A program made the translations under genes and the position numbers. From Escherichia phage DCP548, in sequence record PQ671645.1: a stretch of DNA of 64,000 bases, one strand, 5' to 3'. Under the pieces are notes generated by a model. It saw nothing but the letters and a program-made list of their open reading frames with translations. It ran no database searches and was not told the DNA's origin. Positions 57,687 through 62,414 of the stretch are shown piece by piece; position 1 is the stretch's first letter; each line of letters starts with the position of its first letter.

Positions 57687-57700
57687 AACATTTTCCTCTG

Positions 57701-57743
57701 TGGTTGATAAGTCTATAGTATCATGTTCTTAGAAGAAGTAAAC
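57701..57743 (-). promoter_or_regulatory. early promoter
   Basis: Minus GTTTAC at 57743..57738 with TATAGA/TACTAT -10 region. Confidence 0.45.
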
Positions 57744-57776
57744 ATCTTTATGAAATATTTTTATGCCCTAGATACC

Positions 57777-57803
57777 AAAAAGCCCCAACCGTAAGGAAGG
57801 GGC
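57777..57803 (-). terminator. rho-independent terminator
   Basis: Minus-strand GCCCCUUCC-UUAC-GGUUGGGGC then UUUUU; downstream of internal-protein gene 57810..58274. Confidence 0.6.
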
Positions 57804-57809
57804 ATTCTA

Positions 57810-58274
57810 TTATTTAATTTGTTTAGCAGACCAGATACGGTCTTTAATAAGTTTTTGGATATCTTCAACATACTCAAGGCTATGAGCGTGAGGATTATCT
57901 TTGAAGCTATGTGCTCGGGCCAGTTTCTGGCCTTCTGTTTTGATTACTAAAAGCTCTTTAAGAATTGCTTCATACTTAGAAATAATTCCTTTGGCGATAT
58001 TTTTTTCTTGAGCGGCTTTAGGGTCCGCTTTTGGCGCAGGTGCTTTACCTGTAGCTTTCTGGAACAATTCACCTGATGCAGCTAGGCTTTTAAAAACTCG
58101 GCTAACAGTATTAGCATTAGTAAAACCTTCGGCTTTAAAATCTCTAATAAAACGGAAACGTTCTTCATCAGAGGCGTCTTTGTAAGAATATTTACCTGCT
58201 TGAATTGCTGCAATCGCAGCGGCTTTTACATCTGAACTAGATTGTTCAGTCAAAAATTCAGCGTATGATTTCAT
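57810..58274 (-). CDS. internal head protein (capsid-targeted)
   Basis: N-terminal MKSYAEFLTE leader; terminator just downstream. Confidence 0.6.
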   Translation of the reverse strand: MKSYAEFLTEQSSSDVKAAAIAAIQAGKYSYKDASDEERFRFIRDFKAEGFTNANTVSRVFKSLAASGELFQKATGKAPAPKADPKAAQEKNIAKGIISKYEAILKELLVIKTEGQKLARAHSFKDNPHAHSLEYVEDIQKLIKDRIWSAKQIK

Positions 58275-58320
58275 GTTGCTTTTCCTAAGTTAATTAACTT
58301 ATCTATTTATTATTATGCAA

Positions 58321-58659: not shown

Positions 58660-59052
58660 TTATTTTGGCATATCATCAATTTGCTCTCGACGCCGACGCC
58701 ATAGATTAATCGCTTCATAAACACATTCTGCGTTTGGTATATGACGGCAATAATATAATGATTCGCGTTTCTGGAACCGATGTTGTAATGGAATTTCGTT
58801 TAAAAGGTCTTTACGATCAAAGTATTCAAAACTAGTTAACCCAGAACGATTTTTAAGGAACTTCCAATGGCCAAATTCATTTTGGAAATAAACGTAATCA
58901 GCGTGTTGATATAACGAATTAATCAACCGGTCGGAAATAACTGTATCCTGTTCATTAAAATAAAACGTTAAATCATGAACTACCAGATAAATATTACCTT
59001 TCATATTTTCCTCACTTAAAGTTGGTCGAGACAGAAGGATTCTAACCTTCAC
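58660..59052 (-). CDS. hypothetical protein
   Basis: 130-aa minus ORF next to the homing-endonuclease-like gene. Confidence 0.4.
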   Translation of the reverse strand: MKVRILLSRPTLSEENMKGNIYLVVHDLTFYFNEQDTVISDRLINSLYQHADYVYFQNEFGHWKFLKNRSGLTSFEYFDRKDLLNEIPLQHRFQKRESLYYCRHIPNAECVYEAINLWRRRREQIDDMPK

Positions 59053-59083
59053 CTTTAACCTTAGAATGATTATATGCTATCCA

Positions 59084-59752
59084 TTACACTATAGAAGCAA
59101 TTAAATTGTTTACTTTATCATCTTTATAAACTTCAGAATAGTGGAGTTCATAAATTTCCCAGCCCAGGGATTTTATAATATCATGTCTTTCCTGATAATA
59201 TGGGGCCAGAATTTTCTTGTTATGATCGGAGTAATGTTGGTTACCGTTAACTTCAATAATTATTTTCTTATCCATCAAAGCAATGTCACAGGAATATGCT
59301 CTATTTTTAACAGGTTGATATTCCTCAACAAATTGTATATTTGCTTCTATTAATTTATTTTTCAAAAATTCGCACGGAACAGATTTGAATTTTGAATTCT
59401 TTTTCCAAGGGTGTTTATCTGGATTTTCCTTTAACCAGGTCTTCCGGGCTGCTGATATCTTTTGTTTGGATTCAGACGAATGCTTTCGTCCTGTGCCTGC
59501 AGCAGACAATTTTTCTCTTGTTTCTTCAGAAACAACTAAAGAAATGCCCTTCTTTTTGGCAACCATGAATTGATTTAAATTACCAGATTCTTTGCGTGCT
59601 TTATTCATAGCAGCGACTGCATTTTTAGAACCCTCTTTATAAGAGGCGAGTTTTGGATTTTCAGAACACCATCTGGTATGACTTGCCATCCATCCCTTTG
59701 GTTTATCAGAAATATCAAATTCTTTATTGCAGTGTTTGCAGATGCTCATCAA
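59084..59752 (-). CDS. homing-endonuclease-like protein (zinc finger + NUMOD3-like repeats + DUF559/PD-(D/E)xK-like C-terminus)
   Basis: 222 aa; N-terminal CKHC...HTRWC; SEETREKLSAAGTGRK and SESKQKISAARK NUMOD3-like repeats; C-terminal YSCDIALMDKKIIIEVNGNQHY. Confidence 0.5.
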   Translation of the reverse strand: MMSICKHCNKEFDISDKPKGWMASHTRWCSENPKLASYKEGSKNAVAAMNKARKESGNLNQFMVAKKKGISLVVSEETREKLSAAGTGRKHSSESKQKISAARKTWLKENPDKHPWKKNSKFKSVPCEFLKNKLIEANIQFVEEYQPVKNRAYSCDIALMDKKIIIEVNGNQHYSDHNKKILAPYYQERHDIIKSLGWEIYELHYSEVYKDDKVNNLIASIV

Positions 59753-59776
59753 AATACTCCTATTATATTATAAGAG

Positions 59777-59784
59777 TATTTATA
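59777..59784 (-). promoter_or_regulatory. late-promoter-like TATAAATA
   Basis: Exact TATAAATA on minus strand about 25 nt upstream of the homing-endonuclease-like ORF. Confidence 0.35.
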
Positions 59785-59808
59785 ATTGAATAGAGCACCG
59801 TTCTAAGT

Positions 59809-59883
59809 TGGTGACCCTGGCTGGTTTCGATCCAGCTACCTATCAGTTATGAGCTGACAGCTCTCCCATTGAGCTACAGGGCC
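59809..59883 (-). tRNA. tRNA, anticodon CAU (Met or Ile2), with encoded CCA
   Basis: Hand-folded cloverleaf on minus strand: acceptor GGCCCTG/CAGGGTC, D-arm GCTC-AATGGGA-GAGC, anticodon loop CTCATAA, T-arm GCTGG-ATCGAAA-CCAGC, 3' ACCA. Confidence 0.7.
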
Positions 59884-61387: not shown

Positions 61388-61651
61388 TTAAATACCAGCT
61401 TCGCGTTTAACATAATCGACGTAAGCTTGGATAGCTTTCTTGCTGGTAATTTTTACCTGACCACGACCATTGCCTTCTTTAGAGTTTTTCTTAACAACTA
61501 CATTACCATCTTTAACACCCCATACATGGACGTAAGTACCGATGTTTCGGTCGTAGAACATTGCATGGTCGTTGTTGTAAGAGAATGATTCGTAGTTCTC
61601 TGTCAGAGTAGAAGATTGAGATTCGGCGATAAATTCTTTATAGGTTTTCAT
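61388..61651 (-). CDS. internal head protein (capsid-targeted), ipI-position
   Basis: N-terminal MKTYKEFIAE leader; sits next to 57B where T4 has ipI. Confidence 0.65.
   Translation of the reverse strand: MKTYKEFIAESQSSTLTENYESFSYNNDHAMFYDRNIGTYVHVWGVKDGNVVVKKNSKEGNGRGQVKITSKKAIQAYVDYVKREAGI

Positions 61652-61728: not shown

Positions 61729-62414
<686 letters not shown>

Follow-up and report, generated by a model that had tools for sequence, protein, structure and literature searches.

A probable Vsr-like homing endonuclease gene in the tRNA cluster of Escherichia phage DCP548, and the tRNA-Arg gene broken at its border

The sequence analysed here, a window of 64,000 nucleotides from Escherichia phage DCP548 (PQ671645.1), is that of a Mosigvirus (RB69 group), and its tRNA cluster contains an open reading frame (ORF) encoding a protein of 221 residues (Table 1). 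On the minus strand, an intact tRNA gene with anticodon CAU is followed by a 59-nt spacer, this ORF and then a 114-residue ORF (58660..59004). Although the ORF list begins the frame at a TTG (59084..59752), its true start codon is the ATG at 59749; the TAA stop codon (59084-59086) falls within the D arm of a tRNA-Arg gene. An earlier, sequence-only reading of positions 59084-59883 had proposed a homing-endonuclease-like gene beside a tRNA. The features it recognised are real, but the range spans two separate genes and overlooks the damaged tRNA-Arg gene into which the ORF extends at its 3′ end. Our comparisons indicate, with a probability of roughly 0.78, that the ORF is a genuine homing endonuclease gene, free-standing, Vsr-like and probably active, which invaded the tRNA cluster of this RB69-like phage. 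The family itself has been described before, and the ORF, though unannotated, can be recognised as one of its members; in most public records its relatives are labelled 'hypothetical protein' or the gene is left uncalled.

Table 1. Features of the endonuclease locus in window coordinates.
Feature	Position	Strand	Basis
Endonuclease gene, free-standing, 221 residues (MSICKHC...NLIASIV)	59084..59749	minus	ORF, Pfam, homologues, dN/dS, patchy presence
CCHC zinc finger (C4, C7, H24, C28), predicted beta-beta-alpha	59666..59740	minus	Conservation and AF2 model
Two NUMOD3 DNA-binding repeats, residues 74-84 and 92-103	59441..59530	minus	Pfam
Family-specific motif NPDKHPWK, residues 109-116, linking the DNA-binding part to the nuclease	59402..59425	minus	Alignment
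Vsr/DUF559-type PD-(D/E)xK nuclease, residues 123-221	59087..59383	minus	Predicted active site E127, D155, E166, N168, H172
Whole cassette relative to gene-less Mosigviruses: 5′ untranslated region, gene, 5′ two-thirds of linked tRNA-Arg	59049..59808	minus	Three-way alignments
Intact tRNA, anticodon CAU, upstream of the gene	59809..59883	minus	ARAGORN; Rfam 59.4 bits
Chimeric tRNA-Arg(UCU), probably dead	59023..59098	minus	Alignments, ARAGORN, Rfam
T4-type late promoter box TATAAATA, 27 nt upstream of the ATG, function inferred	59777..59784	minus	Exact match
Predicted two-tier RNA hairpin in the 5′ untranslated region	59741..59799	minus	Minimum free energy -21.9 kcal/mol, z -5.4

Domain searches and structure prediction both point to a DNA-binding N-terminal part joined to a C-terminal nuclease. 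The Pfam matches comprise NUMOD3 (E 7.4e-6, 26.2 bits against a curated cut-off of 20.4), RAP (E 1.1e-5, exceeding its curated cut-off) and, barely over the threshold, DUF559 (PF04480; E 1.8e-4, 21.7 bits against 20.6). Among 40 family members RAP is the commonest match (39/40), with DUF559 found in 21 at E <= 0.01 and NUMOD3 in 15. The 221-residue protein has no GIY-YIG or HNH match in Pfam, and the label 'HNH endonuclease' carried by relatives in two phage records is not borne out. Matches in PHROGs fell in families of unknown function and in 'homing endonuclease' families, and an NCBIfam search returned nothing meaningful. The AlphaFold2 (AF2) model of the protein has a predicted local distance difference test score (pLDDT) of 87; its zinc-finger region (pLDDT ~90) consists of strands at residues 2-3 and 10-11 and a helix at residues 20-26. 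Fold comparison, with Foldseek in agreement, assigns the C-terminal catalytic domain a Vsr-type PD-(D/E)xK fold, and the best fold match is a DNA homing endonuclease. The peptides quoted in the sequence-only reading are all present (SEETREKLSAA, residues 74-84; SESKQKISAARK, residues 92-103; YSCDIALMDKKIIIEVNGNQHY, residues 152-173), and its proposal that the gene resembles those of homing endonucleases and ends in a PD-(D/E)xK nuclease of the Vsr/DUF559 type agrees with the Pfam, fold, hhalign and presence data.

Conservation extends through both parts of the protein. An alignment of 40 sequences contains 22 invariant and 22 nearly invariant positions, all of which are intact in the window protein. 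The invariant positions include N109, H113, W115, E143, D155, E166, N168, G169, Q171, Y173, Y184, Y185 and R188, and the nearly invariant ones C4, C7, H24, C28, P110, K116, E127, H172 and H189. A search of 5.8 billion proteins yielded 285 homologues, and an exhaustive search of 1.84 billion matched 1,494 cluster representatives at E <= 1e-3 and 666 at E <= 1e-10. The conserved module corresponds to residues 86-221, preceded in relatives by variable N-termini that carry one or two C2HC fingers or helix-turn-helix (HTH) domains. In the Karamvirus relative from Citrobacter phage CkP1 (L009:2504-3139), a NUMOD3-like N-terminus is accompanied by a weak match to phage endonuclease I, just under the Pfam cut-off, and by no DUF559 or RAP match; this protein may represent a swap of nuclease domain on a common DNA-binding scaffold.

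The sequence-only reading had called this domain mix unusual. That idea was discarded: a NUMOD region N-terminal to a Vsr-like nuclease is the defining architecture of the Vsr-like/EDxHD family, and the hallmark of that family, as is plain from Dassa et al. (2009; PMC2677866), who defined the Vsr-like homing endonucleases, and from Taylor et al. (2011; PMC3239194). Tandem NUMOD-3 repeats, 5′ hairpins and free-standing members are likewise on record for the family (PMC2677866). In its member I-Bth0305I, which acts as a dimer, NUMODs at the N-terminus precede a Vsr-like nuclease at the C-terminus, and the enzyme cuts a pseudopalindrome adjoining its insertion site to leave 2-nt 5′ overhangs (PMC3239194). 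We recovered its sequence from Bacillus phage 0305phi8-36 (gp29) and aligned it with hhalign, which pairs residues 116-217 of the window protein with residues 151-254 of I-Bth0305I (E 1e-4, 28% identity, probability only 57%), including the segments KKNSKFK and KRHGKFK. Active-site residues E170, D196, E206 and N208 of I-Bth0305I fall on E127, D155, E166 and N168, so that E, D and E-x-N are in register, and H213 lies one residue from H172, a histidine at G+3, as in DUF559, rather than at G+4. At this alignment probability, four of the five EDxHD positions are thus matched, with the His offset by one; the fifth, D222, is paired with the invariant Y184, and the nearby E187 and D190 vary within the family. 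A second gene of the same phage, gp194 (L010:14861-15373), is labelled 'homing nuclease', and its core LDRYYPDLNLGFEMNGRQHY contains the D...E-x-N-G-x-Q-H-Y motif of the family (profile E 9e-6 within that locus; no Pfam match).

The two proteins also differ in several respects. Their identity is just 22-28%, and HMMER alone makes no connection between them; the window protein carries NUMOD3 repeats and a CCHC zinc finger in place of the NUMOD2/HTH repeats of I-Bth0305I; and its gene stands free between tRNA genes, whereas that of I-Bth0305I lies in a recA intron. Cellular DUF559 and Vsr proteins are more distant in organisation: they are not mobile and have neither a zinc finger nor a NUMOD3 module nor the NPDKHPWK motif, and both the structural zinc site and the mismatch-reading residues of Vsr are absent from the window protein. 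I-Ssp6803I, encoded in a cyanobacterial tRNA-fMet intron, is a further homing endonuclease of the PD-(D/E)xK superfamily tied to a tRNA gene (PMC2677866), although the tRNA(CAU) of the window is untouched and has no intron.

The distribution of the gene is that of a mobile element. A 1.9-kb interval around it matches 726 phage records, mainly of Escherichia and Shigella T4-type phages, of which 9 cover at least 80%; elsewhere, 1,195 bp stand in place of 1,901 bp. The closest flanks (95-96% identity) belong to Mosigviruses without the gene. By tblastn, 36 of 50,697 phage records encode a relative, 11 of them E. coli phages; the best shares 80.5% identity in protein and 78.5% in DNA, and the gene itself is 76-78% identical in DNA to its nearest alleles. 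Six genera (Mosigvirus, Gaprivervirus, Tequatrovirus, Jiaodavirus, Gualtarvirus and Lazarusvirus) contain relatives of 54-80% identity, and Karamvirus contains one of 30%; in all seven of these T4-type genera the gene sits inside the tRNA cluster. Such sporadic presence between conserved genes of otherwise collinear phages is as known for free-standing homing endonuclease genes of T4-type phages. The exact window protein recurs on 14 contigs that were assembled from several public sequencing runs, and the ratio of nonsynonymous to synonymous substitution rates (dN/dS) is 0.05-0.15 between alleles, or 0.30 between the two closest, which differ by very few changes; purifying selection evidently acts on the gene. 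In Mosigvirus PTE-Eco05 (PQ306573.1, H41), the match to the gene falls into two parts and the annotation lists two hypothetical proteins, which marks this as a frameshifted, decaying copy. The comparison of relatives called for by the sequence-only reading thus finds the gene sporadic, with the conserved catalytic residues kept and an empty tRNA locus in phage AV117. The pattern is that of a selfish, mobile but apparently functional gene.

Three-way alignments with WFL6982, which has the gene, and AV117, which does not, delimit what was inserted. In AV117, tRNA(CAU) and tRNA-Arg(UCU) are separated by 3-6 nt. One boundary in the window lies directly after the CCA of tRNA(CAU) and the other inside tRNA-Arg, which defines the cassette given in Table 1. 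It is 65-87% identical to WFL6982 and a gap in AV117, and its immediate flanks are mostly 92-100% identical to AV117. A tRNA-Asn gene lies between tRNA(CAU) and the endonuclease gene in WFL6982 and ELT1 and is absent from the window; the boundaries therefore differ between invasions. The sequence-only reading had regarded tRNA(CAU) as the homing site, a candidate that we rejected: this gene is the same base for base whether the insert is present or not, in WFL6982, AV117 and all genomes compared. ARAGORN labels it tRNA-Met, and it stands where the T4 literature puts tRNA-Ile, ahead of segB and tRNA-Arg. In the segB-bearing phage L088, the tRNA in the same position also has a CAT anticodon and has the acceptor stem GGCCCTG in common with it. 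The tRNA(CAU) of the window is possibly not tRNA-Met but a tRNA-Ile2 that reads AUA.

Replacement, and in the window breakage, affected instead the tRNA-Arg(UCU) gene on the other side of the ORF from tRNA(CAU). Its nucleotides 1-50 (59049-59098; GCTTCTATAGTGTAATGGATAGCATATAATCATTCTAAGGTTAAAGGTGA) are those of the allele that travels with the endonuclease gene, and nucleotides 48-76 (59023-59051; TGAAGGTTAGAATCCTTCTGTCTCGACCA) exactly match the allele resident in Mosigviruses without the gene. The junction is the common TGA at 59049-59051, which lies at the 5′ edge of the T arm, the sole stretch common to both alleles. Each parental allele forms a cloverleaf. In the hybrid, the 5′ acceptor strand GCTTCTA faces TGTCTCG, so that five of seven pairs are broken and neither an acceptor stem nor a cloverleaf remains; with acceptor strands drawn from different alleles, the gene is probably dead. 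ARAGORN calls no tRNA-Arg at this position, and Rfam covers just model positions 6-65 (37.6 bits). The same hybrid occurs in five other contigs with the gene allele of the window (L008 and L084-L087), one of which has lost a further nucleotide from the D loop, a change to be expected once a gene is dead. Alleles at a greater distance (81-85% identity) have an intact linked tRNA-Arg, and intact tRNA-Arg(UCU) genes accompany the endonuclease gene in WFL6982, PSD2001, ELT1 and LilPanda. The hybrid is a clean natural case of the collateral cost when a mobile gene arrives, inherited in several phages and decaying further in one. The first 15 nt of tRNA-Arg double as the end of the ORF, comprising its final four codons and its stop (59084..59098 in the window). 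RNase P cleavage at the 5′ end of an intact tRNA-Arg would strip the stop codon from the endonuclease mRNA and could act as a brake on expression; this putative brake would be lost in the window, where tRNA-Arg is broken.

The slot immediately before tRNA-Arg is also that of the T4 homing endonuclease gene segB. Closely related Tequatroviruses fill this interval in three ways: with segB in 235Ecol030PP (Thr-CAU-segB-Arg), with the present gene in ELT1 (Thr-CAU-Asn-[endonuclease gene]-Arg), and with tRNAs only in NR1 (Thr-CAU-Tyr-Asn-His-Arg). SegB recognises the T-psi-C motif of tRNA genes and causes the tRNA region to be inherited preferentially (PMC2330249, PMC2988022). The window protein resembles it in its position directly upstream of tRNA-Arg in a T-even tRNA cluster, its 221 residues, its NUMOD3-type region, a putative late promoter and a predicted hairpin that would sequester the ribosome-binding site, as well as in the carriage of neighbouring tRNA genes and a family-wide tRNA association. 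The two proteins nevertheless have no significant similarity (BLASTP E 1.6), and the nuclease of SegB is of the GIY-YIG type; target and homing were established by experiment for SegB, whereas the window protein is known from sequence alone. Two unrelated nuclease families, one GIY-YIG and one Vsr-like, thus compete for the same slot in T-even phages. For SegB, tRNA amplification and evasion of defence have been demonstrated, and an association with tRNA genes has been published (PMC13096335).

There is a precedent for such a replacement. Taylor et al. placed the Hef-type endonucleases of T-even phages in the Vsr-like family (PMC3239194). Hef of phage U5 and other T4-related phages, in the account of Sandegren et al. 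(2005) as cited in PMC2988022 and PMC3239194, lies between nrdA and nrdB and cuts nrdB. Compared by these descriptions, Hef is likewise a free-standing, Vsr-like T-even endonuclease, and it replaces the unrelated mobE as the window gene replaces segB. In the T4-like phages whose loci were examined, tblastn with the window protein found just the copies in tRNA clusters.

Expression of the gene is predicted to be controlled from its 5′ untranslated region. The late promoter box TATAAATA, which the sequence-only reading had seen ahead of the gene, is indeed conserved, occupying the same place in six of eight alleles (six phage genera), with AATAAATA in the other two. Exact copies are not above chance in the 64-kb window (5 against 7.5 expected); the five (31238, 38943, 42602, 59777, 62769) all lie on the minus strand, which carries the coding sequences in the part examined. 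Scans for sigma-70 promoters and terminators around the gene gave results at chance level. The box is situated between the two 5′ arms of the predicted hairpin, whose inner stem would pair the Shine-Dalgarno sequence GGAG (59757-59760), 7 nt before the ATG, and whose outer stem would pair the AUG and first codons (AUGAGCAU) with an upstream GGUGCUC. Equivalent folds were predicted in three other alleles, from three other genera (z -3.5 to -4.3), and the inner stem is kept in eight alleles. A T4 late transcript begins a few nucleotides past its promoter; here, such a transcript would omit both 5′ arms and would be translatable. The same scheme has been described for I-TevI, segB and mobE (PMC2988022).

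A homing cycle can be proposed that would account for these features. Transcripts reading through from the tRNA operon would fold into the hairpin and mask the ribosome-binding site and AUG, and late transcripts starting just past TATAAATA, without the 5′ arms, would allow translation late in infection. The zinc finger and NUMOD3 helices would bind DNA, and the Vsr-like domain, probably as a dimer like I-Bth0305I, would cut the allele without the gene in a co-infecting relative. The cut would fall in or beside the resident tRNA-Arg of that relative, the candidate target being this tRNA gene, on the 5′ side of its T arm, or its 5′ border. Repair would then copy in the cassette together with its divergent tRNA-Arg allele, which presumably resists cleavage and confers immunity, and which would replace the destroyed one. 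In the lineage of the window, the copied tract may have stopped at the short T-arm homology inside tRNA-Arg. The joint travel of gene and linked tRNA-Arg allele, and the hybrid junction inside tRNA-Arg, are indirect signs of such co-conversion. A tRNA-Arg gene as target would also make the enzyme a compact, dimeric nuclease whose natural target is conserved.

The association with tRNA genes extends to distant relatives. Of 64 IMG/VR loci with relatives of 30-59% identity, 56 remained at 90% identity; a tRNA gene lies within 100 bp of the ORF in 35 of these, within 300 bp in 44 and within 1 kb in 51, raw counts taken without a matched control from the same contigs and to be set against a scale of two tRNA loci in the 64-kb window. 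In 24 of the 56, the immediate neighbour of the ORF is tRNA-Arg(UCU), at a distance of 40-70 bp where it lies upstream and of 0-14 bp where it lies downstream. Among 185,579 bacterial and archaeal species genomes just 11 loci were found, with tRNAs near nine. Cellular hosts were rejected as their source: all 11 lie on contigs of metagenome-assembled genomes with a viral look, one of them identical to an IMG/VR viral contig. The high tRNA proximity suggests a clade specialised on tRNA clusters, of interest in view of the tie between phage tRNA genes, SegB and escape from tRNA-cleaving defences. Our literature search found no paper on a tRNA-cluster-associated Vsr-like clade. One linked tRNA-Arg allele travels with the gene throughout the enterobacterial T4-like subclade. 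The idea that a single such allele accompanies the gene everywhere was rejected, as the adjacent tRNA-Arg genes of metagenomic relatives are heterogeneous; a fixed 'cargo' allele is therefore a feature of the enterobacterial subclade only.

A broader picture can be put forward only tentatively, and as a whole we consider it doubtful. According to it, the entire clade (~1,500 clusters at 50% identity, nearly all from phage metagenomes) would be, next to that of SegB, a second homing endonuclease lineage specialised on phage tRNA clusters, and one of independent origin; the resident tRNA-Arg(UCU) gene or its border would be the landing site; and the cargo would be a cleavage-resistant tRNA-Arg allele, sometimes with more, such as the tRNA-Asn of WFL6982 and ELT1. 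If so, the clade would be a general driver of phage tRNA gene turnover, including the occasional gene death seen in the window, and could serve tRNA-based counter-defence as SegB does.

Several observations weigh against interpreting the window gene as an active, DNA-cleaving homing endonuclease. The low hhalign probability is accompanied by a tyrosine at the fifth EDxHD position and a displaced histidine, and neither phmmer nor a 40-sequence profile, searched against the PDB, found anything relevant even at E <= 10 or reached I-Bth0305I. Sequence-only searches miss the solved structures, so the link to this enzyme comes from the fold comparison and hhalign. The flanks lie in a mosaic region where ordinary phage recombination, rather than break repair, could explain the junctions, and a 100-nt identity profile showed no clean co-conversion gradient in them, general mosaicism being dominant. 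The tRNA-proximity counts are uncontrolled, as noted. Among the eight hairpin alleles, no double compensatory changes were seen, only G-U changes, which leaves thermodynamics and conservation as the support for the fold.

These weaknesses leave room for other explanations, each of which is less likely than a homing endonuclease. The protein might be a domesticated nuclease of homing architecture, retained for the benefit of the phage rather than for its own spread, whether by excluding co-infecting competitors or by amplifying or exchanging tRNA genes against tRNA-targeting defences, as for SegB. Strong purifying selection, the recurrence of the exact protein on 14 contigs from several samples, and a family-wide tRNA link that parallels the tRNA amplification and defence evasion of SegB (PMC13096335) would all fit. 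However, the gene is rare among close relatives, one copy is decaying, and its arrival cost the lineage of the window its tRNA-Arg; such a benefit would in any case be compatible with homing, as SegB does both. We therefore regard pure domestication as unlikely.

More improbable still is an inactive relic, that is, a protein that arrived by past homing or recombination and no longer cuts DNA, its ORF merely persisting. The absence of Asp at the fifth EDxHD position could be so explained, as could the dN/dS of 0.30 between the two closest alleles, although this value reflects very few changes; moreover, with the target allele already replaced in the lineage of the window, selection for activity may be weak. 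Against a relic stand the full-length ORF, the intact invariant and nearly invariant positions, the conserved promoter, hairpin and Shine-Dalgarno sequence, and the low dN/dS relative to all more distant alleles. The constant place among tRNA genes might alternatively reflect an RNA-directed enzyme, whose RAP-like PD-(D/E)xK domain would have precursors of tRNAs or other RNAs as substrates; Pfam matches in the family are most often to RAP, and the gene lies within a tRNA operon with its stop codon inside a tRNA. Yet RAP, Vsr and DUF559 have one common fold, which makes the RAP match uninformative on substrate, and the best match is to a DNA enzyme. In addition, NUMOD3 and the zinc finger are DNA-binding modules of homing endonucleases (PMC3239194, PMC2677866), and a gene that some genomes have and others lack, with sharp boundaries in the DNA, has the mark of a mobile DNA element. 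An RNA substrate is accordingly very improbable, and a DNA-cleaving homing endonuclease is the reading that we prefer.

Beyond the cassette, an Acb1 gene directed against the cyclic-oligonucleotide-based antiphage signalling system (anti-CBASS; 61729..62184, minus strand; Pfam PF23474, E 1.3e-58) lies ~2 kb upstream of the endonuclease gene on the same strand. Two slots of small ORFs (61388..61651, minus strand, and 57700..58300) are at most 60% identical to AV117 and WFL6982, in surroundings that are mostly 92-100% identical. In the first of these, contigs L084 and L085, which carry the same endonuclease allele, have a 95-residue IPI_T4 (internal protein I) gene, and the window and L008 have an 87-residue ORF with no Pfam match.

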